A stretch of DNA of 57,675 nucleotides, from assembly GCA_964474895.1 (NCBI GenBank), contig CAYYUK010000003.1:1-57675 (forward strand). Reading direction: 5' to 3'. This DNA is from Candidatus Woesearchaeota archaeon. Lineage in GTDB: Archaea; Nanobdellota; Nanobdellia; SCGC-AAA011-G17; PNOQ01. Shown one piece after another: positions 6,891 to 55,009 of this stretch (the first letter of the stretch is position 1; each line of letters starts with the position of its first letter). The notes under the pieces are model-generated. The model saw only the letters and a list, made by a program, of their open reading frames with translations, was not told where the DNA came from and did no database searches. The position numbers and the translations under genes were made by a program.

Positions 6891-6901
6891 ATGCAAAAAT
6901 A

Positions 6902-6921
6902 TATACATACATGTATGTATA
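6902..6921. promoter_or_regulatory. Perfect 20-bp palindrome TATACATACATGTATGTATA, candidate operator of the RHH protein
   Basis: Exact self reverse-complement, 11 bp upstream of the RHH ATG and just downstream (minus strand) of a TATA-like TTTAAAAA at about 6930-6937. Confidence 0.7.
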
Positions 6922-6985
6922 AACCCACCTTTTTAAATAAACATAAATATTCACGTAAGTTTACTTTATAAATATTTCGAAAGAA

Positions 6986-8383: not shown

Positions 8384-8450
8384 AGTCAACACAATTCAAA
8401 GCTAGCTTATATAATTTACTAAAGAAAAAAAGAAGAAAAAGAAAAAAGAT

Positions 8451-9404: not shown

Positions 9405-9592
9405 TGTATGCCGAAAAACTCCAAAGAGCTTTTAAATCTTTCCATTTTAAAAAAAAGAATAAAGAAATAGTGATAAAGAGGTGTTTGCCTACCCTACACC
9501 TATTTAAGCCATTTAAATACTTAATGAAGGTCCATGTCATCGTGTCAAGCAAAGGAAAAAGCTTAAATAAATTCTAAAAAATAAAGTAAAAT

Positions 9593-28560: not shown

Positions 28561-31116
28561 ATGGAAGACGAGTTAAAAATTGATTTCAATTTAGAAAACA
28601 TAAAGAAAAGCTTAGAGAAACCTAAAAAATTCATAATCAAACACAAAATAGTTCTATTAATATTGATTCCAATAATCTTGGCAGTTTTCTTTAGGGCATA
28701 TACATACGATCTACCATTTGCAAACAACATGGCAGAAGACTCACTAGAAAATAATATTATATCACAAATTCAAAATCAAATAATAGCTGAAAATCCGAAT
28801 ATCGATGAAAATACACTTAATATTTTAACACAACAAAGATATAATGAATATGTAGCCTCGAATAGAGAACTAATAGAACAACAAGTAGAACAGATTACAA
28901 ATCAAATTAAAAGTTACTATCAAGACGAATCAGGACAAACATACCTTCTAGCAATAGATCCTTATCACTACTATAGGCAAGCACAAAATGTTTTAGACAA
29001 TGGACACGTGGGGGATGAATTAGTAGATGGAAAACCATTTGACAATCATATGTTGGCTCCAAATGGAAAAGAAACATCAAACGACTTCCACTCAGTCATT
29101 GGAGCATATGCACATAAAATAAGTTCATTATTTGGAAATGATTCATTAATGAAAACTATGTTCATTCTACCACTAATCTTTGCAGCATTATCAACAATTC
29201 CTCTTTTCTTTATTACAAGAAAGATAGGTGGAAACCTTGGTGGGACAATAGCTGCATCAATTCTTGCAATACATTCTGCATTTCTTTCAAGAACCCCTGC
29301 AGGGTTTTCAGATACTGACGCATACAGCATATTTTTTCCATTAGTAATAATCTGGCTGTTCTTAGAATCATTCACAACAACAAACAAAAAAAATAAAATG
29401 ATCTCAGGAGTTTTAGCTGGACTATTTTCAGGCATCTTTGCATTTGCATGGGGTGGTTGGTGGTACGTCTTAGACTTTATTCTAGCAAGCATGGGAATTT
29501 ACTTCATATATTTGCTAATAAAACATAAAAAAGAAGTATTCAAAAAAATAAAAACAAAAAATCTTGTAAAAACAATGGTGTATTTCATAGGTTCATCTGC
29601 CCTCTTTGTAACTTTATTCACAAGTTTTGGTACTTTCTTAGGTGCATTTAAATCTCCAATAGATATTGTATTTCTTAAAGAAGCTGCAAAATCAACACTT
29701 TGGCCAAACGTATACACAACAGTAGCAGAACTAAACGCAATATCAATACCTGGAGTGATATCAAATCTTGGGGGAAAATTATTTTTTGCAATAGCAACAA
29801 TAGGAATACTACTAATTTTACTAAAAAAGAATAAAAAACAATTAGATATAAAATATGGTATACTAATGGTAGTATGGTTCATAGGGACACTTTACACAAC
29901 AACAAAAGGAATACGATTCATAATGTTCATGGTACCTGTATTTGCAGCAGGTATTGGTATTTTTTCAGCAAAAGCTTACAATTTCATAACAAACTGGTCA
30001 GAAAAGGAATTAAAAATAAAAAAGAAGTTGGTTTCAGCATTACTCATAATCATAATTATTTTGAGCTTTATACCATTAATAAAATCTGCAAACATTTCTT
30101 CAAAACAACAAGCACCATCAATGAACGACGCATGGTATGGTGCACTCACAAAAATAAAAGAAGAAACTCCAGAAAACACAATTATAACTTCATGGTGGGA
30201 TTTCGGTCACTGGTTCAAAGCAATTGCAGATAGGGCAGTAACCTTTGATGGAGCATCACAAAATAGACCCCCTGCACATTGGGTAGGAAAGATTCTTCTA
30301 ACAAATGACGAAAATGAAGCAATTGGATTATTGAGAATGTTAGATTGTGGCGGAAATGACGCATACAATCTACTCCTGGAAGAAATAGAAGATCCATTAA
30401 CAACCAAAAGCACAATAGATGAAATAGTATTACTAGATGAAAACTCAGCAAGAACTATCTTAAATCAGCATTTAGAAGATCCAGAGAAAATATTAGAAAA
30501 AACACATTGTTCGGCACCGCCTGCAGTATTTATTACTTCAGAAGACATGGTTGCCAAATCTGGAGTTTGGGCACATTTTGGCTCTTGGGATTTTGAAAGA
30601 TCATTTATGTACAATACGATAAGAAACAACAATAAAGAAAACTCAATAAACATTATATCGGATAGATTAGGATACTCTGAGGAAGAATCATCTTTATTCT
30701 TTAATGAATTAAATGGTTTACCTGACACTGAAGCAAACAATTGGATTGCGCCATACCCAAGCTATTCGCACGAAGGATCTTGTCAAATAAGAAATAACAC
30801 AGCAACATGCAGTAATGGAGCAATAATAGATTTAACCAATAACGTAGCTGCAATACAAACCGAAAACGGGTTAATGCAAGTTCAAAAATACAGAGATGAT
30901 AAGAGAGTCTATACTTCAACAGAAGGAACAAACAACATAGCAATAGCATACTTCCCAGAAGAATCAAAATCAAGACTTATGAGTGAAGAATTAATAGAAA
31001 GCACTTTCACAGAACTATATTTCTATAAGGGGGAAAATTTAGATCATTTTGAATTATTTGATCACCAAATTGGTGTTGATGGATTTGATATATACACATG
31101 GACTATAAAATGGTAG
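28561..31116 (+). CDS. aglB: Oligosaccharyltransferase AglB (STT3 family)
   Basis: AIDPYHYYRQ, RTPAGFSDTD, YTTVAEL, WWDFGH, DGASQ, EDMVAK (DxxK); many TMs followed by a soluble C-terminal domain. Confidence 0.96.
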   Translation: MEDELKIDFNLENIKKSLEKPKKFIIKHKIVLLILIPIILAVFFRAYTYDLPFANNMAEDSLENNIISQIQNQIIAENPNIDENTLNILTQQRYNEYVASNRELIEQQVEQITNQIKSYYQDESGQTYLLAIDPYHYYRQAQNVLDNGHVGDELVDGKPFDNHMLAPNGKETSNDFHSVIGAYAHKISSLFGNDSLMKTMFILPLIFAALSTIPLFFITRKIGGNLGGTIAASILAIHSAFLSRTPAGFSDTDAYSIFFPLVIIWLFLESFTTTNKKNKMISGVLAGLFSGIFAFAWGGWWYVLDFILASMGIYFIYLLIKHKKEVFKKIKTKNLVKTMVYFIGSSALFVTLFTSFGTFLGAFKSPIDIVFLKEAAKSTLWPNVYTTVAELNAISIPGVISNLGGKLFFAIATIGILLILLKKNKKQLDIKYGILMVVWFIGTLYTTTKGIRFIMFMVPVFAAGIGIFSAKAYNFITNWSEKELKIKKKLVSALLIIIIILSFIPLIKSANISSKQQAPSMNDAWYGALTKIKEETPENTIITSWWDFGHWFKAIADRAVTFDGASQNRPPAHWVGKILLTNDENEAIGLLRMLDCGGNDAYNLLLEEIEDPLTTKSTIDEIVLLDENSARTILNQHLEDPEKILEKTHCSAPPAVFITSEDMVAKSGVWAHFGSWDFERSFMYNTIRNNNKENSINIISDRLGYSEEESSLFFNELNGLPDTEANNWIAPYPSYSHEGSCQIRNNTATCSNGAIIDLTNNVAAIQTENGLMQVQKYRDDKRVYTSTEGTNNIAIAYFPEESKSRLMSEELIESTFTELYFYKGENLDHFELFDHQIGVDGFDIYTWTIKW

Positions 31117-35823: not shown

Positions 35824-36504
35824 ATGAATATCTCCATAATTGTTCCTGCTTTCAATGAAGAAAAAAACATAGGCAAAGCAATAGACAATCTAAGAAAAGA
35901 AGGATACAACAACATAATTGTAGTGGATGACGGCTCTAAAGACAAAACTTTTGAAATAGCAAAGGAAATGCAAGTACATGCCCTAAGACACATAATAAAT
36001 AGGGGACAGGGGGCTGCACTTCAAACAGGAATGAGCTATGCACTCCTAAACGGAGCAGAAATATTAGTTCATTTCGATTCAGACTGCCAGCATAAGGCAG
36101 AAGAAATACAAAAAATGATTCTTCCAATAATACGCAACGAAGCAGAAGCAACACTAGGTTCAAGATTCTTAAATAAACAAAGAATACCATTTAAAAGAAA
36201 AATTATGCTCAAGGGTGCAATTCTAATAATTAGAATGTTCTATGGAATAAAACTCTCTGATGCCCATAACGGTTTCAGAGCATTTTCAAGAGATGCAGCA
36301 GAGAAAATAAGAATAACAATGGATAAAATGGAACATGCTTCAGAAATAGTTGAAGAAATAAAAAGAAAAAAAATTAAGTATAAAGAAATCCCTGTAACAA
36401 TAGTTTATACAGCAGAATCGCTAAAGCAAGGAAGAAAGGGACAGGGTAAATTAGATTCATTAAAAATTGTATCAAAAATGTTCATGAAAAAATTGGGAGT
36501 TTAA
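35824..36504 (+). CDS. GT2 DPM1-like polyprenol-phosphate sugar synthase
   Basis: IIVPAFNEE, VVDDGSKD, INRGQGAALQTG, HFDSDCQH, DAHNGFRAF. Confidence 0.92.
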   Translation: MNISIIVPAFNEEKNIGKAIDNLRKEGYNNIIVVDDGSKDKTFEIAKEMQVHALRHIINRGQGAALQTGMSYALLNGAEILVHFDSDCQHKAEEIQKMILPIIRNEAEATLGSRFLNKQRIPFKRKIMLKGAILIIRMFYGIKLSDAHNGFRAFSRDAAEKIRITMDKMEHASEIVEEIKRKKIKYKEIPVTIVYTAESLKQGRKGQGKLDSLKIVSKMFMKKLGV

Positions 36505-36505
36505 A

Positions 36506-36829
36506 ATGTTAACAATAATACAAATAATATTCGTAATCTTTAGTTTATTTGCATTCAGCAGAGTGTTCATAAACATAAGAGACAAAAATTTAAGGGAAAA
36601 AGAAGCATTCTTCTGGTTAATTTTCTGGGGAATTGCAATAATAGTTTTACTATATCCAGGAGTTTCAACAACCATTTCAGAATTTCTTGGCATAGAGCGT
36701 GGTGTAGACTTAATAACTTATTCAGGACTAATACTCTTAGCATATATGATATTTAGATTATATGCAAAGCAAACAAGGATTGAAAGAAACATAACAAAGA
36801 TAGTTAGGACAATAGCAATCAAAAAATGA
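36506..36829 (+). CDS. DUF2304 family protein (GacJ/Rv3632-like GT2 activator)
   Basis: 107 aa, 3 TMs, FFWLIFW..YP, LGIERGVDL, C-terminal ITKIVRTIAI; immediately after a GT2 gene. Confidence 0.88.
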   Translation: MLTIIQIIFVIFSLFAFSRVFINIRDKNLREKEAFFWLIFWGIAIIVLLYPGVSTTISEFLGIERGVDLITYSGLILLAYMIFRLYAKQTRIERNITKIVRTIAIKK

Positions 36830-37956
36830 GAATAGTATACATTACTGAATATTTCCCTTATCATGGAGAAGGGGACATAACTGGGGGGGCCGAATCCAGA
36901 TGCTTTAACATAGCAAAAGAACTGTCAAAAAAACATGAAATGATAGTAATTACCTCTTGGAAAAATGGACAAGAAAGAAAACATAATATTGGAAACATAA
37001 AGATTTACAGAGCAGGGCAAAGTCATGAGTATTCAAACGAAGGAGATATTCTTTCAAGATTAAAATTCTCAATAGCAGCATACAAAATCGCAAAAAAGAT
37101 TAAGGCAGATGTAATAGAAGGTTACAATTTCATAAGCTACTTACCAGCATTCTATGCTTCAAAAAAAACAAAATCCAAAAGTATCGCAACATATCACGAA
37201 ACATGGCTAGGTGAATGGATTAAAAATAAAGGGTTAATAACTGGAATACTTGGAGAAATATGGGAAAGGTGGACACTCTCAAGAAGATGGAATAAAATAA
37301 TTTCAGTAAGTAATTTCACAGCAAAGAGAATAAAAAAAAGGACAATAATAGTTCCAAATGGAATAAATATAGAATCATACACAAAAAAGGAAACAAAATT
37401 CAAAGAACCAACAGTCTGCTCCATCTCAAGATTAACACCAAAAAAGAGAGTTCAAGATTTAATTAAAGCAATAGCAATAGTAAAAAAAGAAATTCCAACT
37501 ATAAAACTAATAGTAATCGGAAAGGGTGACGAAATAACCAATCTAAAAAGTTTAGCAAATAGATTAAATTTACAAAAAAACATAGAATTCAAAGGTTTTG
37601 TAAAAGAACATAAAGATGTTATAAAATATCTAAAAAAATCACATATTTTTTGCTTACCAAGTATTCTAGAAGGATTTGGAATAGTTCTCCTAGAAGCAAT
37701 GGCATCAAGGACCCCTTACGTCTGCTCTGATATTGAAGTCCTAAAAGAAGTAACAATTGAAGGAAAGGGTGGGTTTATCTTCAAAAACAAAGATCCCAAA
37801 GATTTGGCAAATAGACTATTATTTCTTCTAAAAAACAATAAAATTTACAAACAAAAAATAGAAGAAGGAAACAATTTGGTAAAAAAATATGACTGGAAAT
37901 TAATTGCTAAAAGAATAGAAGGAGTATACAAAAATGAAAGTGCTATTCATATCTGA
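36826..37956 (+). CDS. GT4 family glycosyltransferase
   Basis: EYFP..GGAE, ISRLTPKKR, LPSILEGFGIVLLEAMA. Confidence 0.92.
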   Translation: MRIVYITEYFPYHGEGDITGGAESRCFNIAKELSKKHEMIVITSWKNGQERKHNIGNIKIYRAGQSHEYSNEGDILSRLKFSIAAYKIAKKIKADVIEGYNFISYLPAFYASKKTKSKSIATYHETWLGEWIKNKGLITGILGEIWERWTLSRRWNKIISVSNFTAKRIKKRTIIVPNGINIESYTKKETKFKEPTVCSISRLTPKKRVQDLIKAIAIVKKEIPTIKLIVIGKGDEITNLKSLANRLNLQKNIEFKGFVKEHKDVIKYLKKSHIFCLPSILEGFGIVLLEAMASRTPYVCSDIEVLKEVTIEGKGGFIFKNKDPKDLANRLLFLLKNNKIYKQKIEEGNNLVKKYDWKLIAKRIEGVYKNESAIHI

Positions 37957-39178: not shown

Positions 39179-40181
39179 TATCAACTTCTATTCAAGAGGA
39201 AGGATATTCTACAAGGGATTAAAATCAAACAGTATAAACACTTCAATATATTTGCCAAAAGGAAAATTAAAATACCTAAAATTAATAAAAAGAATTCTAA
39301 AAAGAGACTTCGACAAAATCATAGTCACTGGAAAATTTGTACTAATCACAAGCTGGTTAACAAAACCAATTCATAGGAAAAAAATAATCTTCGACGTATT
39401 CATTTCAGATTATGAAAATCTTGTACTAGACAGAAAAAAGGTAAAGAAAAACACCATAAAAGCAAAATTGCTAAAAATGGGAGATAAAGTATCATGTCTA
39501 CTATCAAACCACAACATATTAGATACAAATGAACACATAGCATACTTCTGTAAAGAATTTAAATTAAAGAAATCAAAGTTTAGCAAAGTATACGTTGGCG
39601 CAGACGACGAAATATTTAAACCATCTAAAATACCTAGCAACAAAGAAATAGAATTTCATGGAACATTTATACCCCTTCAAGGAATTGAGCACATAATAAG
39701 GGCTGCAAAAGAATTAGAAAAAGAAAAAATTAAATTCAAAATAATTGGAGAAGGAGACGAAAGCAAAAAAATACAAAAAGAAGCAGAAAAACTTAACATA
39801 AAAAACATAGAATTCATAAATAAAAATGTAAGTCTAACAGAACTTGCAAAAGAGATTCAAAAAAGCGAAATCTGTCTAGGGGTATTTGGAGATTCACAAA
39901 AAGCAAAAAACGTCATCCCAAACAAAGCATATGAAATAATAGCATCAAAAAAACCGTTAATAACAAGTGACACTCCTGGAATAAGAGAAGTATTCGAAGA
40001 TAAAAAAAATTGCCTCCTATGTAAACCTTATGATCATATAGATTTGGCTAAAAAGATAACTAAACTAAAAAACAATAAAAAACTAAAAGATAAAATATCG
40101 AACAATGGATATAAATTATTCAAAGAAAGATTTTCGATACAAAAAACTGGAGAAGCCCTACTAAAAGTTATAAATTCATAA
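39150..40181 (+). CDS. GT4-like glycosyltransferase
   Basis: IFDVFISDYE, FHGTFIPLQG, CLGVFG..KAKNVIPNKAYE. Confidence 0.85.
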   Translation: MKILMLGVYDINFYSRGRIFYKGLKSNSINTSIYLPKGKLKYLKLIKRILKRDFDKIIVTGKFVLITSWLTKPIHRKKIIFDVFISDYENLVLDRKKVKKNTIKAKLLKMGDKVSCLLSNHNILDTNEHIAYFCKEFKLKKSKFSKVYVGADDEIFKPSKIPSNKEIEFHGTFIPLQGIEHIIRAAKELEKEKIKFKIIGEGDESKKIQKEAEKLNIKNIEFINKNVSLTELAKEIQKSEICLGVFGDSQKAKNVIPNKAYEIIASKKPLITSDTPGIREVFEDKKNCLLCKPYDHIDLAKKITKLKNNKKLKDKISNNGYKLFKERFSIQKTGEALLKVINS

Positions 40182-41127
40182 TTTTCAACATAGTCTTAAT
40201 TCTATCAACAACTTTGTGTTCTTCTAAAACTCTCTGATATCCAGCTTCAGAGATTCTATCTCTCTTTTCAGGTTGTTCCAAATAAAATCTTAATTTCTCT
40301 TTTAAATCATCAAGATCAGAATAACAAACAATTTCTTTATTTATTTTAAACAAATTGGGCAACTCAGATTTATAATCCACAAGTTGAAAGCTTTTAGTAG
40401 CTGGAAGCTCAAACGTCCTAAGATTAAGGCTTTCTTTCCCATGTAAAGCTTGCAGATTTAAATTGATTTTACTAGAATTAAAAAGCTTTGCAGCACTAAC
40501 GCCTGACAAATATTCTCTTTTCAGATTTTTAACAAGACCTCTTTTATTCTTCCAATTATGACCAAAAACTTGAACATTAAAATCTCCTAATTTTTCCATC
40601 AAATCTTCCCTTTCTGGCTCATAAGAACCCAAAAAAGAAATTTCATAAGGATATTTTCTTTCATTAAAAGGAATAATTGGTTTATGGGCGTCCTCGGGGT
40701 CTGCAGCTGCAGGTAAATAAAAAGAATTTGCACTTATTTCTCTTAACTTTTTCAAATAATAGGGATCAAAAACAAAAAAGAAATCATATTCTGAAATATT
40801 TTTTATCCTATTATAACTATAAAAATCACCAAAGGGACTATCTAATGTCCAATCTGCAGTTTTCACACCTGCAGAAGAAATTTCTTTTATAATTCCTTTT
40901 GGAATAATCTCTCCCTTTATGACTAAAAGTAAATCTGGATTAAACTTCAAAACTTCCTTTTTCAAAGAATTGCTCACCAGAGTTCTAGCAACGGGAAGTC
41001 TTCCAAATTTAGAAGCTCTGTAATTAAAAAATCCAACCTCATGACCAAGAGCTTCAAATGCTTTCTTACACTGATAATAAAAACTAGGGTATTCTGCGTC
41101 TCCCGGACCAGTCAAAAAAACTCTCAT
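40168..41127 (-). CDS. CgeB-like glycosyltransferase (Glyco_trans_1_2)
   Basis: WTLDSP, SFYLPAAADP, ISFLGS, SKINLN, NLRTFELPA, CYSDLDDLKEKL. Confidence 0.82.
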   Translation of the reverse strand: MRVFLTGPGDAEYPSFYYQCKKAFEALGHEVGFFNYRASKFGRLPVARTLVSNSLKKEVLKFNPDLLLVIKGEIIPKGIIKEISSAGVKTADWTLDSPFGDFYSYNRIKNISEYDFFFVFDPYYLKKLREISANSFYLPAAADPEDAHKPIIPFNERKYPYEISFLGSYEPEREDLMEKLGDFNVQVFGHNWKNKRGLVKNLKREYLSGVSAAKLFNSSKINLNLQALHGKESLNLRTFELPATKSFQLVDYKSELPNLFKINKEIVCYSDLDDLKEKLRFYLEQPEKRDRISEAGYQRVLEEHKVVDRIKTMLKIMNL

Positions 41128-41177: not shown

Positions 41178-42107
41178 ATGCTAACTTTCGAAAAACTAGA
41201 TAAGAACAACAAAGAAGAATGGAATAATTTTGTAGACAAAACACCTAACGGAAGATTTGAGCATAAAACCGACTTTATAGATTTTTTAGAAAAAAACAAA
41301 GGAAATTTAGAAAGTTTTCTAATAAAAGAAAATAATAAACTAATAGCAACTATCTCATTATTCAAAGAAAATATTTTTCTATTCAAAAGATACTCTTCAC
41401 AAGGAATTGTAACCAAAGAAAATATAAATGTAAGAAAAATTATAAAAGAGCTAATAAAGAAAACAGGTAAAGCAACATATATAAGAATAAATAAATTAAA
41501 TGCAAAAGTGAAGAAAACAGTTCCAGAAACTTTCATACTAAACATAAAAGACAAAACAATAAAAGAAATATTTAACAAAGAATTAGAATCAAGAGCAAGA
41601 AGAGCAATAAAAAAAGCAGAAAGAAACAATTTAAAACTAAAAATATCAAACTCAAAAGAAGAGTTAAAAAAATTCTATCCAATTTATCAAAATAAAATGA
41701 AAGAATTCAAAAGTAAGGAAAGTTCTTTAGATTCGTTAAAAAAACTAATGAAAAACAAAAACTACAGTTTGTTTAACGTTTATTCAAAAGACAAGGTAAT
41801 TGCAGGTGGGACAATGATGATTTACAAAAACATGATAACAAACCATTTAGCAGCATCTGACAAAAACTATTTAGAATTTGCACCAAACAACTTTCTTTAT
41901 TACAACATGATTAAATTCGCAAAAGAAAAAAATTTAGAAATTGTAAATTACGGTCCATCATTAAAAACAGATAGGGTCGCAAAGTTTAAAGAATCTATGG
42001 GTGGAAAACCAATCGGATTTGAAGAACACATAATCCTAAACAAACTACCATATTCACTATTCAAGTTATTATCTTACATCTTACTAAAAATAAAAAAAAT
42101 TATTTAA
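41178..42107 (+). CDS. FemAB/FemX-like GNAT protein
   Basis: WNNFV...FEH, RRAIKKAE..L, FAPNNFLYYNMIKFA..G-like, FKESMGG. Confidence 0.82.
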   Translation: MLTFEKLDKNNKEEWNNFVDKTPNGRFEHKTDFIDFLEKNKGNLESFLIKENNKLIATISLFKENIFLFKRYSSQGIVTKENINVRKIIKELIKKTGKATYIRINKLNAKVKKTVPETFILNIKDKTIKEIFNKELESRARRAIKKAERNNLKLKISNSKEELKKFYPIYQNKMKEFKSKESSLDSLKKLMKNKNYSLFNVYSKDKVIAGGTMMIYKNMITNHLAASDKNYLEFAPNNFLYYNMIKFAKEKNLEIVNYGPSLKTDRVAKFKESMGGKPIGFEEHIILNKLPYSLFKLLSYILLKIKKII

Positions 42108-45753: not shown

Positions 45754-45805
45754 TAAAAAAATCAGCTACACAACCTATTTAAATTTAGCTTAATTGAGAT
45801 TCATA

Positions 45806-47038
45806 ATGAAAATACTCTATATCTCACGAAATTTCTACCCTGAAGGGTTCGGAGGGGGAGAAATAAGTGCTTTACACATAGCAAAAGCAGTAACAGAAAG
45901 AGAAAATGAAGTAGTAGTTTGCTGTTTATCTAAAAAAATAGACAATCCAAAATTAGAGAAAATTGAAAACATAAAAGTATACAGATTCCCCTGGAGAAAA
46001 CTAAAGTTTTCAAAAAAATTATCTAACCTCGAGTATGCATATTGGCAAATATACAAAGCGGCAAAAGAAGTAATAAAAAAAGAAAAACCAGATATTATTC
46101 ATTTTCTCAACTTCCAAGCAATATTCCCTCTTGCATTATTTTTCAAAAAATATCCAAAGTTTGCAACAATAAATGGCCCACTTTTTTGTGAATTTGGTGG
46201 GTCTCATCCAGATGGAAACTCTTGTTATAACTGCAAGCCTAAAGAAAGGTTAACAATTTCCTTAAAAAAATGGGGATTAAAAGGTATTTTATACTGGACA
46301 TATAACAGATACTCTCAACCACTTCTAAAACTAAGCTTAAAAAAATGTACAAAGTTATTTCCAGTAAGTAACGCAATCCAAACAATGTTAATTTCTGGTG
46401 GAATAAAAAAAGAAAAAACAACAGTAATCTATAATCCAATAAAACCAAATAACAAGATAAAAACTAACTTAAAAGAAAAATTAAACATATCTGAAAAAAC
46501 AAATGTTATTTTATACGCGGGCAGATTATCAAAAGATAAAGGGATACACAACACAATAAAAGCAATAAGAGATATTGATAATATTAGATTAATAATAGTT
46601 GGAGAAAAAAGAAATTATTACGAAAACTTAAAAAAACTAGTAGAAGATTTAAATTTAAAAGAAAAAGTAACCTTTATTGGATTCATAGAAAACAGCAAAA
46701 TAAACGAATATTTCTCAATTGCAGACTTGGTTGTGCACCCTTGCTTCTTCTATGAACCATTATCTAGGATGTTATTGGAAGCTGCCAGTTATGGATTACC
46801 ATTAATAGCATCAAACGCAGGAGGAAATCCAGAAATAATTGAAAATAGAAAGAACGGATTCATAATAAACAACCAAACTGAATTAAAAGAAAAAATAGTA
46901 GAACTAATAGAAAACAAGAGTTTAAAAGAAAAAATGGGACAAAACTCAAAAAGAATAATAGAAGAAAAGTTTGAAAATAAAAAGATAGGAAATCTATTAA
47001 CAGAAGAATACAAAAGATATTTAAACAAAAGATCTTAA
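45806..47038 (+). CDS. GT4 family glycosyltransferase
   Basis: FYPEGFGGGE, YAGRLSKDKG, EPLSRMLLEAASYG. ATG 45806 preferred over TTG 45794. Confidence 0.9.
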   Translation: MKILYISRNFYPEGFGGGEISALHIAKAVTERENEVVVCCLSKKIDNPKLEKIENIKVYRFPWRKLKFSKKLSNLEYAYWQIYKAAKEVIKKEKPDIIHFLNFQAIFPLALFFKKYPKFATINGPLFCEFGGSHPDGNSCYNCKPKERLTISLKKWGLKGILYWTYNRYSQPLLKLSLKKCTKLFPVSNAIQTMLISGGIKKEKTTVIYNPIKPNNKIKTNLKEKLNISEKTNVILYAGRLSKDKGIHNTIKAIRDIDNIRLIIVGEKRNYYENLKKLVEDLNLKEKVTFIGFIENSKINEYFSIADLVVHPCFFYEPLSRMLLEAASYGLPLIASNAGGNPEIIENRKNGFIINNQTELKEKIVELIENKSLKEKMGQNSKRIIEEKFENKKIGNLLTEEYKRYLNKRS

Positions 47039-47047
47039 GCGATTTCC

Positions 47048-48235
47048 ATGAAACATATAGTATTCTTAACAAGATATCACCCAACACCAGGGGGGAGAAC
47101 TGGATTCACAAAAGATATAATAAAAAATCTTGGTGATGACTATAATTTTAGTGTAATTTGCTTTAGAAGAAAAGATTTAATCTCAGAAAAAATCTCTTTT
47201 GATCCATCAAAAGAAGCTTCAATTAAAACATTAGAAATAAAAAAGAAATTCAAAAGTGATACTTTGAATCTAATCAGTTACCACATAAAATCCTACAAGA
47301 TTCTAAAAAAATTAAAAGATAAAAAAGAACTGGATATTATTATTGGAACGGGACTATCTGGACTTGGAGGGATAATCTTTGGGAAACTAAACAAAATACC
47401 AGCTATATTCAATACTTCTGGAATAAGAGGAAGAAACATAAATGAACACATAGACTATGAAATAAAAAATAAAGAAGAAAAAGAAATAGGAAAGCCAAAA
47501 CTAAAAAATTATCCAAGATTCCTATACAATTATCTAACAGATAGATTAAGTATCTTATTATCAACAAAAACAACAATTCCAACAGGTCATTTAGAAGAAC
47601 AACTAGAAAAGAACAAACCAAAATTATACAAAAAAACAAAAAGTAAGTTTAAAGTAATAATAGAAGGTCTAAACACAAATAGGGTAGACAATCTAAAGAA
47701 AGAAGACATATTAAAGGAATACAACATCCCAGAGGGCAAAATAATATTATTCTCTAGAATAGAAAACGAAGAATTCTTCCAAGAACTATTTAAAGAAATT
47801 AAAAAAGAAATCCCCGATTCTACAGTAATAAGCATAGATGCACAAAGAATGACTATGCGGCTAGAAAAAGAAGGAAAATTAGAACTTACGGATATGGGCC
47901 CAATAAAAGCAATGATAGCTAGCGATCTAATGCTTTGCATCCCTGGTACTGAACCACATAGTACCCTAGTTTTAGAATCCCTTTACACGAATTGCCCAAC
48001 ATTTGTATCTAATGTAGGATGGTTAAAATATGAATTTAAAGATTACCCTGAGTTTATAGTTAAAAATCTTACAAAACAAGAAACAATTTTCAAAATCAAA
48101 GATTTCTATAAAAACAGAGAATCATATTCTGAAAAATTTTCAAAAATAAAGCAAGAAATATTGGACAGAAATAGCTTCGAAAGAACAAAAAAAGACTACA
48201 AAGACTTATTCGACAACATATCTTCCATAAGATAG
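47048..48235 (+). CDS. Divergent GT-B (GT4-like) protein immediately upstream of pepM
   Basis: N-terminal YHPTPGG; C-terminal SDLMLCIPGTEPHSTLVLESL resembles the E-x7-E motif, but the rest is degenerate. Confidence 0.65.
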   Translation: MKHIVFLTRYHPTPGGRTGFTKDIIKNLGDDYNFSVICFRRKDLISEKISFDPSKEASIKTLEIKKKFKSDTLNLISYHIKSYKILKKLKDKKELDIIIGTGLSGLGGIIFGKLNKIPAIFNTSGIRGRNINEHIDYEIKNKEEKEIGKPKLKNYPRFLYNYLTDRLSILLSTKTTIPTGHLEEQLEKNKPKLYKKTKSKFKVIIEGLNTNRVDNLKKEDILKEYNIPEGKIILFSRIENEEFFQELFKEIKKEIPDSTVISIDAQRMTMRLEKEGKLELTDMGPIKAMIASDLMLCIPGTEPHSTLVLESLYTNCPTFVSNVGWLKYEFKDYPEFIVKNLTKQETIFKIKDFYKNRESYSEKFSKIKQEILDRNSFERTKKDYKDLFDNISSIR

Positions 48236-48292
48236 CTTCGCAAAATATTTAAACCATCACAGTAGACATAATTTACTAAAAAGGTGACAAGG

Positions 48293-49657
48293 ATGGAAAC
48301 TGAAACTAATTCTAATAAAAAAGTTGTATATGTCGCAATGGCATCAGACTTGTTACATCATGGCCATATGAAAATAATTGAAGAAGCAAGAAAACTTGGA
48401 GATATAACTCTTGGGTTATTAACTGATAAAGCAATCGCAGGATATAAGAGAGTTCCATTGTTAAATTTTGAACAAAGAAAAAAAATAGTGGAAAATTTAA
48501 AAGGAGTATCTCAAGTTATACCTCAAGAAACCCTTGATTATATTCCGAATCTATTAAAATTAAAACCAGATTTCGTTGTACATGGAACTGATTGGAAAAC
48601 TGGAGTACAAAAACAAACTAGAGAAAAAGTTATAGAAGCACTAAAACAATGGGGGGGAACTCTAATTGAACCAGAAGTTATTCCTGTTTCTAATAGTACA
48701 CTTATAGAAACTGGTGGAGATGGAAAAATGTCTTCAACTCATTTAATAGATTCTGTTTTAGAAGCAGGCGCCGCTCCAGAAGTAAGAAGAAAAAAACTAA
48801 AAAGAGCTATAGAACTAAGACCAATTGTTAGAATATTAGAAGCACATAATGGGCTAACCGGAAGGATAGTTGAAAAAACAAAAATAGCGAAAGATGGAGC
48901 AATAAAAGAATTCGATGGTATTTGGATTAGTAGTCTAACAGATTCTACAGCAAAAGGCAAACCAGATACTGCTGCAGTAGATGTAACTTCTAGAGTAAAT
49001 ACAATTGAACAAATATTAGAAGTAACATCAAAATCAATAATAGTAGACGGAGATAACGGGGGAATAGTAGAACATTTTAGGTTTACAGTAAAAACTTTGG
49101 AAAGATTGGGTGTTTCTGCAATAATAATTGAAGACAAAATAGGACCAAAGAGAAATTCATTATTTGGAACTGAAGTAGAACAAAAACAAGATAGTATAGA
49201 AGAATTTAGTCATAAAATTTCTGAAGGAAAAAAAGCACAATTAACAGATGATTTCATGATAATCGCTAGGATAGAAAGCCTGATTGCCGGGGCTGGATTA
49301 GATGACGCCCTAAAAAGAGCAAGTGCATACATTGAATCTGGAGCAGACGCTATAATGATCCATAGTAAGTCCAAAACACCAGATGAAATATTAGAATTTT
49401 GTAAAGAATACAACAAATTTGAAAACAGAATTCCACTAGTAGTGGTCCCTTCATCATATAGCCATATAACTGAAGACGAATTAATAAATAATGGAGTAAA
49501 TATCGTAATATATGCAAATCACTTACTAAGAAGCGCACATCCATCAATGGTAAAAACAGCAGAATCAATTCTAAAACATAGCAGGTGTCACGAAGCAAGT
49601 TTAGAACATTGCATGCCGATTAAAGATATCTTAAACCTGATCCCCGGAAGTAAATAA
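48293..49657 (+). CDS. pepM: Cytidylyltransferase - phosphoenolpyruvate mutase fusion
   Basis: N-domain DLLHHGH (HxGH), VVHGTDW, SST. PepM domain EAHNGL, WISSL, KPD, DGDNG, the signature [10 protein letters not shown] (EDKxxxxxNS), ARIES, IYANH. ATG 48293 lies behind GGTGA. Confidence 0.96.
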
Positions 49658-49715
49658 ATAATAATTTCTAAAAATTCATAAGTCTTATAAAATAATCAAG
49701 CCTCTCGAAAAGATA

Positions 49716-50849
49716 ATGTTATCCTGTAAAAGTTTCGAACAAATTCTGAGTAAAGAGGGAATATCTTTCTTCACAGGAGTTCCAGATTCACTATTAAAAG
49801 ATTTCTGTGCATATGCTACTGACAATATTCCCCCTGAAAGAAATATCACAGTACATAATGAGGGTGGAGCAATTGCATTAGCAGCAGGACATTACCTAGC
49901 AACACAAAAGCCAGGGTTAGTATATATGCAAAACTCTGGACAAGGAAACGCAATAAATCCATTAGCCTCTTTGGTAGATCCTGATGTTTATAGCATACCA
50001 TTACTCCTTCTGATTGGATGGAGGGGGGAACCTGGAAAAAGGGACGAACCACAACATGTAAAGCAAGGAAAAATAACCCTTGGTTTACTAGAAACTCTGG
50101 GGATTCCTCACAAAATTCTGCCAGATTCAATAGAAGAAGCAGAAAAAATAGTAAAAATAGCTGCTGAATCAATGAGAGACCGGAATGCGCCTTATGCACT
50201 TGTAGTAAAAAAAGGAACTTTTGAATCTTATGAGCTACAAAATAAAGCAAAAACTAATTTTGAATTAAATAGGGAACAAGCCTTAGAGCTGATAGTAGAT
50301 AATTTAGATTCACAAGACATTGTAATTTCAACTACAGGAAAAACATCTAGAGAATTATTTGAGTATAGAGAAAAGTTAAATCAATCACATGAAAAAGATT
50401 TTCTTACAGTTGGATCAATGGGTCATTCATCCCAAATAGCCTTGGGAATTGCATTATCAAAACCAAAAAGAAACGTTTATTGTTTTGATGGAGATGGAGC
50501 TACAATCATGCACATGGGATCCTTAGCAATAATTGGGCAACAAGCTCCAAAAAACTTCAAACACATTATATTTAATAACGGTGCACACGATTCAGTAGGG
50601 GGTCAACCAACAGCAGGATTTAACATCGACATTCCAATCATAGCAAAAGCAAATGGATACGAAAAAACCTTTAGAGCAGAAACTAAAGAAGAAATAATAG
50701 AAAGTATGCAACAACTAAAATCGGCAGAAGGCCCAGCACTCCTAGAAATAAGAGTTAACAAAGGAGCAAGAAAAGAATTAGGAAGACCAACAACAACGCC
50801 GATAGGAAATAAAGAAATGTTCATGGAATTCTTAACCGAAAAACAATGA
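49716..50849 (+). CDS. aepY: Phosphonopyruvate decarboxylase
   Basis: GVPDSLLK, NEGGAIALAAG, YMQNSGQGN, GWRGEPG..DEPQH, VGSMGH, DGDGA, NNGAHDSVGGQ. Confidence 0.95.
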   Translation: MLSCKSFEQILSKEGISFFTGVPDSLLKDFCAYATDNIPPERNITVHNEGGAIALAAGHYLATQKPGLVYMQNSGQGNAINPLASLVDPDVYSIPLLLLIGWRGEPGKRDEPQHVKQGKITLGLLETLGIPHKILPDSIEEAEKIVKIAAESMRDRNAPYALVVKKGTFESYELQNKAKTNFELNREQALELIVDNLDSQDIVISTTGKTSRELFEYREKLNQSHEKDFLTVGSMGHSSQIALGIALSKPKRNVYCFDGDGATIMHMGSLAIIGQQAPKNFKHIIFNNGAHDSVGGQPTAGFNIDIPIIAKANGYEKTFRAETKEEIIESMQQLKSAEGPALLEIRVNKGARKELGRPTTTPIGNKEMFMEFLTEKQ

Positions 50850-51985
50850 GTCAAAAAGAATATTTTGGATCTGGAGCAATAGAAAACCTAAAAGAACAAT
50901 TATCATCTCTTAAACCAAACAAAGTACTTCTAATAACGGGGAATAATTCTTATCAATCTTCTGGAGCAAGAGAAGCAATAGAACCTTTATTATCGGGAAC
51001 ACATTATGAAAGATTCTACGAATTCAAAACAAATCCAAATGTAGAAGATATCAAAAAAGGAATAAAAATTTTCAAAGCTAATCAATGTGATCTAACAATT
51101 GCTATTGGTGGTGGTAGTTGTATAGACATGGCTAAAGCAATAAATGCACTAGCAAATCAAGAAGGCAACTTAGAAGATTACATAACAGGAAAAAGAAGTT
51201 TAGAAACTTCACCAGGAACATTAATAGCAATACCTACAACTGCAGGAACTGGATCAGAATCAACTCATTTCGCAGTTGTTTATATTGGAAAAACAAAATA
51301 TTCTTTAGCACATCAAAAGATGTTACCAACAGTTGCAATCTTAGACCCAAACCTAACAATAAACTTACCACAAAGCATAACTGCAGCAACAGGAATGGAT
51401 GCATTAGGACAAGCAATAGAAGCACACTGGTCAACAAACTCAACTGAAGAATCTAGAAAATATTCTATGGAATCCATAAAGCTAGGAATCCAAAATCTAG
51501 AACAATGCGTAAATAATCCAAATGAACAACTAAGAGAAAATATGCTAAGAGCTTCAAACTTAGCAGGAAGAGCAATAAATATAGCGAAGACGACCGCAGC
51601 ACATGCAGTGTCATATCCGATAACTTCGCACTTTGGGGCCCCCCATGGACACGCAGTAGGGTTAACATTGCCAAGTTTCATATTATACAACTCACAATTA
51701 GAAGAAGGAACAAAACTAAACGACACAAGAGGAAGAAACTTTGTAAAAGAAAGAACAGAAGAAATAGTTCAGGCATTGGGCTGTGAAACTCCTGAACAAG
51801 CAAAAGAGCTTTTAACAAAATTAATGGGAAAAATAGGTCTAGAAACAAGATTAAGTAAATTAGGAGTAACTGAAGAAGGAATCCAATTAATAATAAAGAA
51901 TGGATTCAATCCTCAGAGAGTAAAAAACAATCCAAAAGATTTAAGCGAAGAAGATTTAAGACTAATTCTAACAGACATATTCTAA
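50846..51985 (+). CDS. Fe-containing alcohol dehydrogenase, phosphonoacetaldehyde reductase (PhpC/FomC-like)
   Basis: GGGSCIDMAK, PTTAGTGSE, GMDALGQAIE, TTAAHAVSY, PHGHAV; ATGA-coupled to aepY. Confidence 0.88.
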   Translation: MSQKEYFGSGAIENLKEQLSSLKPNKVLLITGNNSYQSSGAREAIEPLLSGTHYERFYEFKTNPNVEDIKKGIKIFKANQCDLTIAIGGGSCIDMAKAINALANQEGNLEDYITGKRSLETSPGTLIAIPTTAGTGSESTHFAVVYIGKTKYSLAHQKMLPTVAILDPNLTINLPQSITAATGMDALGQAIEAHWSTNSTEESRKYSMESIKLGIQNLEQCVNNPNEQLRENMLRASNLAGRAINIAKTTAAHAVSYPITSHFGAPHGHAVGLTLPSFILYNSQLEEGTKLNDTRGRNFVKERTEEIVQALGCETPEQAKELLTKLMGKIGLETRLSKLGVTEEGIQLIIKNGFNPQRVKNNPKDLSEEDLRLILTDIF

Positions 51986-52025: not shown

Positions 52026-52631
52026 ATGAAAATAGACAAAGGAGACCTCCAGTTCAGAAATATTGTACATTCTCTTATTAAAAAAGAAAAAATGGGCAAA
52101 CTATTAGACATCGGACCTGGAAGAGGCCAAATAACAAAGATGTATTATGAGTTAGGTTTTCAAACATCTTGTGTAGATATAGATCCTTCTGTTTTAGAAT
52201 TTGATAAAATTACTTGCAAAAAAGTAGACATGAACTTCGAAAAGCTCCCATTCAAAAATGAAAGTTTTGATTATGTAATGTGTACAGAAATTTTAGAACA
52301 TTTAGAAAATCCACATAACTTAATAAGAGAATCAAGCAGGGTGCTAAAAAAAGGAGGAAAGCTAATAACTTCCACACCCTACACAGGATCTTTAGTTCAA
52401 AGAATTTACTATCTTTTAACAGGATTCTTCCTAAGATTCAACAAAGAACCAAAAGAAGACGGACACATAACCCCAATAAACTTGCATCTTCTAAAACATT
52501 TGTTTAAAAAGAACAATCTCAAAATAGAGAAAATTACATACAACAGGGGGTGGCTTCCATTGCTAAGAATCGAATTACCAAGAAATAAATTATGGGGAGA
52601 CGTAATAATAATTAAAACACAAAAATATTAA
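52026..52631 (+). CDS. Class I SAM-dependent methyltransferase
   Basis: LLDIGPGRG, LPFKNESFDYV..EILEHLENP, LKKGGKLI. Confidence 0.9.
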   Translation: MKIDKGDLQFRNIVHSLIKKEKMGKLLDIGPGRGQITKMYYELGFQTSCVDIDPSVLEFDKITCKKVDMNFEKLPFKNESFDYVMCTEILEHLENPHNLIRESSRVLKKGGKLITSTPYTGSLVQRIYYLLTGFFLRFNKEPKEDGHITPINLHLLKHLFKKNNLKIEKITYNRGWLPLLRIELPRNKLWGDVIIIKTQKY

Positions 52632-52775: not shown

Positions 52776-53498
52776 ATGAAAAACAAAGAAATTCTACAAG
52801 AGGAAGAATACTTAATTCCATATCATCACACAGTAAAGGAAGGAGAATACGCTGGAATATCTTATTTTAGTGTAATAAGCATAATAAAAAAAATAATAAA
52901 AAAAATATCCCCAAAAACAATTCTAGACTTCGGCTGTGGGGATGGAAAACTAATCTATGAACTAAAAAATCAAGATACTGAACTAACTGGAATTGATTTA
53001 TCAAAAAAAGCAATATCCTTTGCAAAAATATTCTCCCCAAAAGAGAAATTTATAGCAGAAGACATAAACAATTACAAACCTAAAGAGAAATTTAACATGA
53101 TCATATCAATAGAAACATTAGAACACATTCCTCCAGATCAGCTAAAAAACATAATAAAAAACCTAAACAGATTAGTAAAAGAAAACGGCTACCTAATCAT
53201 AACAGTTCCATCAAAGAATGTTAGACTATTTAAAAAACATTATCAACATTTCGATACAAAAACAATGCAAAACTATCTAGAAGGACAATTTAAAATAGTA
53301 AAAACATTAGGGCATTACAAAATATCAAAAAGGTATGAACTACTATACGCACTTGCAACAAACAATTATCTATCAATTTCATCCAAAAAATATCAAAAGT
53401 TTCTAAATAAATACTTCAAAAAAAATATAGAAAGAGCATCAACAAATAACTGTAGAAGACTAATCTTCATATGCAAAAAACTAAGCAACTCTTTTTAA
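52776..53498 (+). CDS. Class I SAM-dependent methyltransferase
   Basis: ILDFGCGDG, GIDLS, IETLEHIP, GYLIITVP. Confidence 0.9.
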   Translation: MKNKEILQEEEYLIPYHHTVKEGEYAGISYFSVISIIKKIIKKISPKTILDFGCGDGKLIYELKNQDTELTGIDLSKKAISFAKIFSPKEKFIAEDINNYKPKEKFNMIISIETLEHIPPDQLKNIIKNLNRLVKENGYLIITVPSKNVRLFKKHYQHFDTKTMQNYLEGQFKIVKTLGHYKISKRYELLYALATNNYLSISSKKYQKFLNKYFKKNIERASTNNCRRLIFICKKLSNSF

Positions 53499-54962
53499 TA
53501 AATCTCTAACTTCTTCAAAACTAATAAGCCTAAACAAAAACAAACCAACAAAATAAAAAATAAGTCCAATTAATCCAATAACAACAAACTCAATCCAAGG
53601 ATTAATTATTGGCATCTTTCTAAGGGCACCGCATAAAATCAAAAATAAAAATCCCAAAACAAAAAGTTTGACAAATAAAATAGCAGGAAAATTATACTTG
53701 ATAATTTTCTTAAGATAATAAAAAGAAACAAAAAACATAAGCAACGAGGCAAAAAACAAAGACAATCCAGCCCCAAGTATTCCATAAAAAGGAATTAAAA
53801 TTAAATTTAAAATTAAAGCAAAAATAGAGCCCCCTGCCATGATCTTTGCATTTATCTTAGATTTACCAATGCCTAAAAGTATATTCGCATTTACATAAGC
53901 AACACAATAAAAAACAGCGGAAAATGAAAGAATCCTCAAAGTAGAAGTAGCCCCAATATAATTTTCACCAAAAAACAACAAAATAATCAATGGAGCAAAG
54001 AAAACCATGCCCAATGAAAGAGGAAAAACAACAATCAATAAATATTTCTGAACACGTTTTATCCCATCAATCAATACCTCTTTTTTCTGAAGATAAATTT
54101 CTGAAGACAAAGGAATTAAAACAAGAGAAACAGATTTAGCAAATTGCCTTAACATCATTGCAATTGGTAGTGCAACGTTATACAAAGCAACTTCTTTCAA
54201 CCCAATAAAAAAAGTAATCAACAATGTATCGATGTATCCTACACTTGAAGCCACAACTGCACTAATTGTTAAAGGAAACCCAAAAAGAGTAAGCTTCTTA
54301 AAAAGTTTAAAATCAACAGAAGATTTAGCCTTGACTGTCTTAGGAGAAAGCTTAGAAAACAAAAGAAAGTAAACAATTCCAGAGAGTATAGAAGCAAAAA
54401 GATATGCATAGGCTGGAGAAAGATAACCAAATCCAAGATAAAAAAGGATGATAGTTATCAAAACAACTAAAGACATTTGGAAAAAATGCGTAAACGCATA
54501 GTAATTCATCTTTTTATAACCTAAAAACAATACATGAAAAAGAGATTCAAAAATAGCAAAGAGAAAAGCTAACCCTAAAACAACCAAAAGCTGAACAGCT
54601 TTAATATCTTTAAAATAATAAAGAGCAAACCTTTCAGCAAGAAGAAATATACCAACTAAGAGAAGTCCATAAGTAATAAGTTGAACAAAAAAGTAATAAA
54701 TAATACCCTTCTTTATAGAAGAAAAATCTTTCTTTATCTTAAACTCTGGAATATACTTCATCAAAGCTTGTCCAATACCAAATCCCCTAAAAGAAGCAAG
54801 CAATCCAACAAGTGCAAATACTGCATAAAACAAACCATAATCTTCAATAGAAAGGTTTCTAGCCAAAACTACTCTTAATACATATCCTAGAAGAGCGGCT
54901 AAAATTGAAGCAAATAACAGCCACCCAGTACCCCTTACAAGAATCTTAGTATAATTAGGCAT
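53481..54962 (-). CDS. MOP/Wzx-type oligosaccharide flippase (AglR-like)
   Basis: About 14 TMs, LARNL..EDYG, DTLLI....G..EVALY..A, LIPFYGILGA. Start set at ATG 54962. Confidence 0.9.
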   Translation of the reverse strand: MPNYTKILVRGTGWLLFASILAALLGYVLRVVLARNLSIEDYGLFYAVFALVGLLASFRGFGIGQALMKYIPEFKIKKDFSSIKKGIIYYFFVQLITYGLLLVGIFLLAERFALYYFKDIKAVQLLVVLGLAFLFAIFESLFHVLFLGYKKMNYYAFTHFFQMSLVVLITIILFYLGFGYLSPAYAYLFASILSGIVYFLLFSKLSPKTVKAKSSVDFKLFKKLTLFGFPLTISAVVASSVGYIDTLLITFFIGLKEVALYNVALPIAMMLRQFAKSVSLVLIPLSSEIYLQKKEVLIDGIKRVQKYLLIVVFPLSLGMVFFAPLIILLFFGENYIGATSTLRILSFSAVFYCVAYVNANILLGIGKSKINAKIMAGGSIFALILNLILIPFYGILGAGLSLFFASLLMFFVSFYYLKKIIKYNFPAILFVKLFVLGFLFLILCGALRKMPIINPWIEFVVIGLIGLIFYFVGLFLFRLISFEEVRDLLKRVA

Positions 54963-55009
54963 AAGGATCACATAACACCACAAATATTTTAAGTCTTACG
55001 AAAGAGAAA

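Follow-up and report, generated by a model that had tools for sequence, protein, structure and literature searches.

The window analysed here is a stretch of 57,675 nucleotides, positions 1 to 57,675 of the forward strand of contig CAYYUK010000003.1 from the Candidatus Woesearchaeota archaeon assembly GCA_964474895.1. Towards its end lie genes for making and activating a phosphonate and, immediately upstream of them, a gene for a divergent glycosyltransferase-like protein, P0001, which we consider here as a candidate for the enzyme that attaches the phosphonate to a surface glycan. The genome holding the window has 572,001 bases in 15 contigs (the window is contig C3), an estimated completeness of 96.6% and a G+C content of about 32%. 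The genes in question belong to a glycan locus that is headed by the gene for the AglB/STT3 oligosaccharyltransferase (28561..31116, + strand; STT3 175 bits) and reaches to a Wzx-type flippase, with about 12 glycosyltransferases, a GT-C enzyme, a deacetylase, a FemAB-like protein and methyltransferases. Its last operon-like run on the + strand consists of a canonical glycosyltransferase of family 4 (GT4; 45794..47038; Glycos_transf_1 144 bits, Glyco_transf_4 60 bits), the 395-residue P0001 (47048..48235), which follows 10 bases downstream, a cytidylyltransferase (CTase) fused to phosphoenolpyruvate (PEP) mutase, or PepM (48284..49657), phosphonopyruvate decarboxylase, or Ppd (49716..50849), an Fe-dependent alcohol dehydrogenase, or Fe-ADH (50846..51985), and two class I methyltransferases.

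The enzymes downstream of P0001 form a recognisable phosphonate pathway. Pfam places CTP_transf_like at residues 22-114 and PEP_mutase at residues 181-430 of the 48284-49657 product, whose translation holds both HHGH, a cytidylyltransferase HxGH motif, and the PEP mutase signature EDKxxxxxNS. This protein scores 395 bits against the PEP mutase equivalog TIGR02320 (cut-off 319.6), and residues 11-141, in its N-terminal part, align with the solved cytidylyltransferase domain of Fom1 (5x3d; E 3.6e-50) at about 65% identity. The Fom1 cytidylyltransferase domain makes the cytidine monophosphate (CMP) derivative of 2-hydroxyethylphosphonate (HEP), as PMC6697681 states with reference to Cho et al. 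2017. The fusion protein is thus predicted to make phosphonopyruvate and, by inference from the Fom1 match, CMP-HEP as well. Ppd scores 502 bits against TIGR03297 (cut-off 312.5) and carries TPP_enzyme_N and TPP_enzyme_C domains. The Fe-ADH is a clear member of its family (Fe-ADH 160 bits, ADH_Fe_C 131 bits) that falls below all NCBIfam equivalog cut-offs, with Phn_Fe-ADH among its top five partial matches (196 vs 424 bits); its position suggests that it serves as a phosphonoacetaldehyde reductase yielding 2-HEP. Both Ppd and Fe-ADH adjoin PepM, and the genome encodes neither the transaminases PhnW and AepZ, which would lead to 2-aminoethylphosphonate (AEP), nor MpnS or HepD. Because the cytidylyltransferase domain is of the Fom1 type and both the AEP transaminase and MpnS/HepD are absent, 2-HEP is most likely the head group.

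Absent from the genome is any recognised protein that would use CMP-HEP. Searches of all 572 kb returned no match to LicD (PF04991), to CDP-alcohol phosphotransferases (CDP-OH_P_transf, PF01066), to TagF-type Glyphos_transf (PF04464), whether in P0001 or anywhere else, or to the sulfatase (PF00884) and NPP (Phosphodiest, PF01663) folds. The complete absence of CDP-alcohol phosphotransferases, together with the very small genome and the AglB/STT3 gene, agrees with a DPANN archaeon of the Woesearchaeota type. Cupin_2 likewise had no match in the genome, nor did an MpnS-like protein from a related locus when used as the query, and the only Aminotran_5 gene encodes a SufS-type cysteine desulfurase (347 bits vs 37 bits for PhnW-AepZ). 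A predicted CMP-HEP-producing domain is therefore encoded in this genome and a recognised consumer is not; since the product needs a user, some unrecognised protein would be expected to consume it. The first-pass annotation, made from the window alone, had described the same PepM fusion followed by Ppd and Fe-ADH, had favoured 2-HEP over AEP or methylphosphonate, and had found no AEP transaminase, HepD/MpnS dioxygenase, LicD-family protein or CDP-alcohol phosphotransferase. The genes lie where it placed them, with domain, motif and equivalog matches (for Fe-ADH, Pfam matches), the choice of 2-HEP is borne out by the Fom1-type domain and the gene content, and the absences extend from the window to the whole genome, where a search for LicD, AepZ and MpnS found none of them and no canonical transferase came to light.

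P0001 is poorly described by existing families. It reaches 18.1 bits against Pfam Glycos_transf_1, under the cut-off of 26.4, with no Glyco_transf_4 match and nothing else of note, and among NCBIfam models it reaches 25.8 bits on TuaC against a cut-off of 550. An AlphaFold2 model built from 19 family sequences, with a predicted local distance difference test score (pLDDT) of 88 and a predicted template modelling score (pTM) of 0.86, has a GT-B fold of two Rossmann domains. Among the best 50 matches to this model from each of Foldseek and VIA-align, the nearest solved structures are all GT4-type sugar transferases, at 8-18% identity. MshA (3c4q) comes first (Z 29.4, root-mean-square deviation 3.2 Å over 351 residues), followed by sucrose-phosphate synthase (Z 28.6), GlgM (28.2) and BshA (5d00/3mbo; 27.8), and then by WaaG, PglA and PimA; the GT4 neighbours overall span Z 25-29 at about 3.2 Å over 330-350 residues, with MshA, BshA and WaaG at 12-15% identity. 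A look-up in the ESM Atlas returned generic GT4 clusters only. No TagF chain occurs among the 50 best matches of either programme, and hhalign gives the P0001 family profile a probability of 98% to the neighbouring GT4 and 28% to a TagF-like protein. On these grounds, the modelled fold and the profile comparison point to P0001 as GT4-derived and not TagF-like. The label of a degenerate GT-B protein in the first-pass annotation was therefore fair, given the sub-threshold Pfam score, and its analogy with TagF did not survive the Foldseek comparison as a family assignment; we retain TagF solely as a mechanistic analogy. TagF and TarL use a two-Rossmann, GT-B-like scaffold, take a cytidine-activated alcohol phosphate as donor, and transfer the phosphoryl group to a hydroxyl with release of CMP, which is the same chemistry as would be required of P0001. 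They differ from P0001 in their PF04464 signature and in descent, given that P0001 comes from GT4 stock and keeps the EX7E frame of that family.

Alignment of the 19 family sequences, which are as little as 27% identical, shows which parts of the GT4 active site were kept and which were changed. Positions G16, G102, S104, G107, S124, P178, E206, G207, E302, H304, S305, L309, E310 and W325 are invariant, and R9, P12, R17 (18 of 19), N122, R127 and F330 are nearly so. The N-terminal GG loop of GT4 enzymes is retained, and so is the EX7E frame with both of its glutamates, as E302-P-H-S-T-x-x-L-E310, which aligns to E-S-F-G-L-V-L-L-E of BshA. Every family member has His304-Ser305 where BshA and most GT4 enzymes have Phe-Gly, and the two canonical GT4 genes beside P0001 read EPLS and EDFG where it reads EPHS. 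The loop bearing these two residues contacts the donor sugar in PimA and MshA. In GT4 enzymes, the arginine and lysine of the GRxxxxKG motif bind the donor diphosphate. With the register taken from the hhalign match to the neighbouring GT4, this arginine (Arg237) is kept in 15 of 19 sequences, whereas the lysine position, 242, holds lysine in 5, glutamate in 4 and other residues in 10. Further features that set the family apart from GT4 are S124, within an 'NxSGxR' motif, and R17, S104, E206 and W325. P0001 thus shares with MshA, BshA, WaaG, PimA and PglA the fold, the GG loop and both EX7E glutamates, and differs from them in its low Pfam score, the His-Ser substitution, the unconserved motif lysine, and a gene context that points to a CMP-phosphonate instead of a sugar nucleotide.

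One interpretation of the weakened GT4 signatures is that P0001 does not catalyse transfer itself and instead pairs, as a GT-B protein, with the adjacent GT4 (45794-47038), aiding substrate recognition as GtfB does with GtfA. The two genes are separated by only 10 bases, and the pair recurs in L004, L009, L011, L013 and G246. We nevertheless consider a non-catalytic role very unlikely: the 19 sequences share about 14 invariant polar or glycine positions, E302, H304, S305 and E310 among them, a pattern that would be unusual for a dead enzyme, and the family members in L014 and L015 have no ortholog of that GT4 adjoining them.

The P0001 family is rare. Its members fall into 10 clusters when 5.8 billion proteins are grouped at 90% identity, and a set of 1.8 billion proteins yields 25 representatives with E of 0.001 or better; a metagenome scan for relatives returned five loci only, and a pattern scan of GTDB species genomes using the nine closest sequences found no relative. 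Against 401 sampled genomes of the phylum, the family profile mostly gave cross-matches to ordinary GT4 genes, confined to their C-terminal domains and scoring at most 76 bits, and full-length members occur in just three genomes: the one that holds the window (G000), G246 and G003. For gene context we counted lineages with at least 8 kb of surrounding sequence, of which there are nine; the contigs of P0021, P0025 and P0017 are too short. Six of these nine lineages adjoin phosphonate genes, in five different PepM gene orders and one locus without PepM. The first order, GT4, P0001, CTase-PepM, Ppd, Fe-ADH and methyltransferase, is that of the window, L001, L002/L003, L008, L009, L010/L011 and the P0004 contig. 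In L004/L005 the GT4 and P0011 are followed by a convergent Fe-ADH, Ppd, CTase-PepM, second cytidylyltransferase, methyltransferase and flippase, and in L013 a GT4, a methyltransferase and P0014 are followed by a convergent Ppd, CTase-PepM and Fe-ADH. L014 carries CTase-PepM, Ppd and Fe-ADH with P0015 downstream of Fe-ADH, and L015 carries a nucleotidyltransferase, an MpnS-like protein, Fe-ADH and P0018, followed by a convergent Ppd and a PepM fused to a LicC-type nucleotidyltransferase. The PepM proteins of L013 and L015 are merely 34-35% identical to that of the window, so the five orders do not represent one cluster inherited intact. The partner GT4 of the window (45794..47038) has homologs at 41-63% identity beside family members in L004, L009, L011, L013 and G246, and probably adds the acceptor sugar.

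The accompanying genes suggest that the phosphonate itself varies among relatives. In L015, which also carries heptose genes, a 453-residue protein (L015:7498-8859) has no strong Pfam match and is an MpnS/HepD homolog (MpnS 6b9s E 6e-81; HepD 6b9r E 2e-65). Genes for B12-binding radical S-adenosylmethionine (SAM) proteins, Fom3-like by domain content, recur next to the cassette at L009:5898-7223, L015:1201-2835, L004:3592-4928 and L041:5271-6743, and the one in L009 is an insertion that directly separates the P0001 homolog from CTase-PepM. This recurrence suggests, from gene content, that some relatives make and transfer 2-hydroxypropylphosphonate instead of HEP. The MpnS-like gene bears on another way of reading P0001, namely as an enzyme that glycosylates the hydroxyl of HEP. 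The top structural matches (MshA, sucrose-phosphate synthase, GlgM and BshA) do use small anionic acceptors, but methylphosphonate, if that is the product in L015, has no hydroxyl to glycosylate, and for this reason we give that activity reduced weight.

The first-pass annotation had named two candidates for the missing transferase, P0001 and the CgeB-like GT-B protein at 40168..41127 (- strand; Glyco_trans_1_2 114.5 bits). The CgeB-like protein is confined to closely syntenic copies of the locus (L001, L002/L003 and the P0004 contig), with none found in L004, L013, L014 or L015, and we rejected it because of this restriction. P0001 gains from the comparison: its homologs co-occur with pepM, which the annotation had proposed as a check, and its rare family recurs beside phosphonate genes in six independent arrangements.

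The genomes of relatives that have PepM and lack this family provide a second line of evidence. Of the 401 genomes sampled from the phylum, 23 have PepM, and none of the 22 besides G000 has a member of the P0001 family, while about 15 of these 22 encode a full-length CTase-PepM fusion at 60-67% identity. In 18 of the 22, a recognised gene of the phosphotransferase or phosphonotransferase type lies within 10 kb of PepM. PF01066 is the most frequent, in 12 of the 22; it lies 228 bases from PepM in G102, a genome of the same genus, and 113 bases in G183, and it is present in three copies in G058. A sulfatase-fold gene is found near PepM in five more (G221, G197, G001, G380 and G010) and a TagF-like gene in another (G325); TagF-like genes also lie near PepM in G102, G183 and G284, and a LicD gene does so in G120. 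Among the five PepM gene orders with the P0001 family, a recognised transferase is present only in L013. Comparing 1 of 5 with 18 of 22 in a rough Fisher test yields p of about 0.02, which is indicative only because related genomes are not independent. With this reservation, the P0001 family and the recognised transferases are distributed in a complementary manner, which further supports P0001 as the best transferase candidate. In G380, three tandem CTase-PepM-like paralogs (G380:C11:31548-37120), 36-40% identical to the window's protein, lie beside the sulfatase-fold gene, and a fourth copy, 65% identical, is on another contig.

The comparison is closest in G102, where the cassette lies in the same glycan locus and stands beside genes that are orthologous, at 53-61% identity, to 34079-35740, 35824-36504 and 36826-37956. 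There (L038, G102:C3:43000-62999), the gene next to PepM in the PepM/Ppd/Fe-ADH cassette at 7710-12013, in divergent orientation, encodes a 220-residue CDP-alcohol phosphotransferase; a TagF-like gene lies at a distance of 7 kb, and neither P0001 nor the partner GT4 is present. G102 thus has a PF01066 gene where the window genome has the pair of GT4 and P0001; the transferase-type gene has been swapped within one genus.

The family also occurs beside phosphonate genes where PepM is lacking. G246 has no PepM, and its locus L039 (G246:C51:22000-41999, about 1000-14200) encodes, in order, an FkbM methyltransferase, a free-standing Fom1-like cytidylyltransferase, a nucleotidyltransferase, PhnD, PhnC, PhnE, a second nucleotidyltransferase, an epimerase, a uridine diphosphate (UDP)-sugar dehydrogenase, a methyltransferase, two P0001-family paralogs, a flippase and a GT4 homologous to the window's partner GT4. 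The paralogs are divergently transcribed and keep the family motif, as EYHS and DYHS. The cytidylyltransferase has 173 residues and is 45% identical to the corresponding domain in the window; the PhnD-type phosphonate-binding protein (250 bits), with its ATP-binding cassette ATPase and permease, is encoded a few kb from the paralogs. From its gene content, the locus looks like a system for salvaging external phosphonate, resembling the logic of choline salvage by Lic with phosphonates on an archaeal glycan in place of choline.

Taken with the fold, these contexts suggest that P0001 is a GT4-derived CMP-phosphonate:glycan transferase, a reading to which we assign about an even chance. Several observations weigh against it. 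The fold of P0001, as modelled, is squarely that of a GT4 using a nucleoside diphosphate (NDP)-sugar, and both EX7E glutamates are kept, so that a divergent sugar transferase has to be considered. P0001 nearly always travels with one particular GT4, which means that its link to PepM could reflect a shared glycan structure and not shared chemistry. No phosphonate gene accompanies P0019 on its 20-kb glycan contig, and the 9.8-kb contig of P0013 offers only heptose genes. In the G003/P0021/P0025 subfamily, 'SDTN' replaces 'SGxR', the proteins pass the Pfam glycosyltransferase thresholds, and the genes sit with a deacetylase and have no phosphonate gene nearby. L013 carries a TagF-like gene in addition to its P0001-family member, and the window genome is in 15 contigs with an estimated 3.4% missing.

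The main rival reading takes P0001 for a divergent but ordinary NDP-sugar GT4. It would contribute a single sugar to the glycan that bears the phosphonate, such as the residue carrying or following it, would travel with the cassette only because both belong to one glycan structure, and would leave HEP to be attached by another unrecognised protein. The structural matches (Z 29, with 12-15% identity to MshA, BshA and WaaG), the retained EX7E frame and GG loop, and the 98% hhalign probability to the neighbouring GT4 all fit such an enzyme, as do the phosphonate-free surroundings of P0019, P0013 and the G003 member. Set against this are the lack of another conserved candidate, since only the canonical GT4, class I methyltransferases and the flippase recur besides the pathway enzymes; the alteration of donor-contacting residues throughout the family; the occurrence of the phosphonate link also in an MpnS-type cluster and, where PepM is lacking, in a PhnCDE/cytidylyltransferase locus; and the replacement of P0001 by recognised transferases in 18 of 22 relatives. 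We therefore judge an ordinary sugar transferase to be unlikely, though more probable than the other alternatives. Comparative genomics, for its part, has strengthened three proposals of the first-pass annotation: that the head group is probably HEP, that a canonical transferase is missing, and that 47048-48235 is the best candidate for the putative transfer.

If P0001 does transfer phosphonate, the pathway may operate as follows. PEP mutase, Ppd and Fe-ADH would make HEP in the cytoplasm, and the Fom1-type domain fused to PEP mutase would combine HEP with cytidine triphosphate (CTP) to give CMP-HEP. P0001, as a soluble or peripheral GT-B protein at the cytoplasmic face of the membrane, would bind the CMP part in its C-terminal Rossmann domain, with Glu310 taking the ribose-binding role of the second glutamate of EX7E. 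It would then transfer the 2-hydroxyethylphosphonyl group to a sugar hydroxyl of a lipid-linked oligosaccharide and release CMP; the acceptor would probably be whichever sugar is added by the partner GT4, whose gene ends 10 bases before that of P0001. Arg17 and Arg127, together with His304 and Ser305, which begin a helix pointing at the donor, are candidates for phosphonate binding or acid-base catalysis. The decorated glycan would be exported by the Wzx-type flippase and placed on surface proteins by AglB. More broadly, and with slightly less confidence, we propose that the family may constitute a GT4-derived class of CMP-phosphonate:glycan phosphonotransferase, not recognised before, which places phosphonates on archaeal surface glycans, both those made de novo (HEP, and possibly hydroxypropylphosphonate and methylphosphonate) and those salvaged through PhnCDE and a cytidylyltransferase.

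Alternatively, CMP-HEP might not be transferred to a glycan at all, and transient cytidylylation could serve tailoring, for example by a methyltransferase, so that the pathway would yield a small molecule, or a lipid incorporating components taken from the host. Cytidylylation of the Fom1 type is a transient step on the way to fosfomycin (Cho et al. 2017, cited in PMC6697681), two methyltransferases follow Fe-ADH in the window, and Fom3-like B12 radical SAM genes are present in some related loci. We find this improbable: the cassette lies inside an AglB-to-flippase locus with about 12 glycosyltransferases, the window cluster has no B12 radical SAM gene, the genome has no PF01066 for a lipid route, and the export or resistance genes typical of antibiotic clusters are not seen.

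The proposed transfer by P0001 has parallels among known phosphonate-bearing polymers. In Glycomyces sp. NRRL B-16210 and Stackebrandtia nassauensis, 2-HEP is reportedly esterified to sugars of an O-methylated exopolysaccharide and the clusters contain pepM; these are bacterial exopolysaccharides, and the window shares with them pepM and methyltransferases. Rice et al. 2019 (PMC6697681) found a nucleotidyltransferase fused or adjacent to most PepM genes, in neighbourhoods with LicD-like phosphotransferases or glycosyltransferases, and did not assign the transfer step. The Pnt pathway described there, made up of Ppm, Ppd, a cytidylyltransferase (PntC or Fom1-type) and a LicD-like or other transferase, resembles the window in having PepM fused to a nucleotidyltransferase in a cell-surface glycan locus, with a CMP-phosphonate as presumed donor; it differs in using AEP and a LicD-like or other transferase, whereas the window combines predicted HEP and the absence of LicD with AglB-based N-glycosylation in an ultra-small archaeon. 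Li and Horsman 2022 (PMC8942020) assigned HEP to 8.5% of neighbourhoods, described a CDP-OH phosphonolipid group and noted HEP in marine polysaccharide. Their 'Burkholderiales_CDP-OH' clusters follow the same logic of a CMP-phosphonate and a transferase encoded beside PepM, as do the 12 of 22 relatives with PF01066 near PepM; in the window genome, which lacks PF01066, P0001 and the partner GT4 hold the place beside PepM. Phosphonate-bearing glycoproteins have been argued for in marine bacteria by Acker et al. 2022, who discussed PglC, Wzx and PglL and not a phosphonate transferase. The attaching enzyme is demonstrated in none of these three studies. In marine high-molecular-weight dissolved organic phosphorus, polysaccharide-esterified HEP and methylphosphonate have been named the most abundant phosphonates, and those of this pool fuel aerobic methane production (PMC8931226, PMC8942020).

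The PepM cassette is itself of a known kind, and the novelty would be a candidate phosphonyl transferase on a GT4 scaffold. If our proposal is correct, phosphonyl transfer has been taken over by a scaffold of sugar transferases, with the chemistry of TagF and LicD carried out on a different framework, and ultra-small DPANN archaea devote part of a 572-kb genome to phosphonate-decorated N-glycans. The impact is limited by the rarity of the family, given that most phosphonate producers, including most relatives of this archaeon, use other transferases. The candidate is small and predicted to be soluble, should be easy to express, and offers His304, Glu302, Glu310 and Arg17 as targets for point mutation, which makes the attachment step directly testable.

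The remaining genes at the end of the locus are conserved to different extents. The methyltransferase at 52026..52631 (+ strand; Methyltransf_11 by Pfam) has no tblastn homolog in the other loci examined and no counterpart at the equivalent position in L001 and L002. The second, at 52776..53498 (+ strand; TehB/CMAS-like by Pfam), recurs with the cassette, with homologs in L001, L002, L004 (37% identity) and L045 (35%); tested as a possible DhpI-like phosphonate O-methyltransferase, it matched generic class I SAM methyltransferases only in a PDB search. The flippase (53481..54983, - strand; Polysacc_synt 119 bits), the presumed exporter of the lipid-linked glycan, is conserved beside the module in L001, L002, L004, G246 and G003.

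Elsewhere in the glycan locus, a FemAB/GNAT-like protein is encoded at 41178-42107 and conserved both in G003 and in the syntenic loci; its presence hints that the glycan has an aminoacyl or peptide branch. A membrane protein of the LPG_synthase_TM family (33144-34082; 116 bits) is encoded between a GT4 and a PMT_2 GT-C enzyme. An Rfam scan of the window found five tRNAs and nothing else. Outside the locus, at 9593-12210, two genes for class II aminoacyl-tRNA synthetases of the Asp/Asn/Lys type (tRNA-synt_2 408 and 221 bits) lie side by side.

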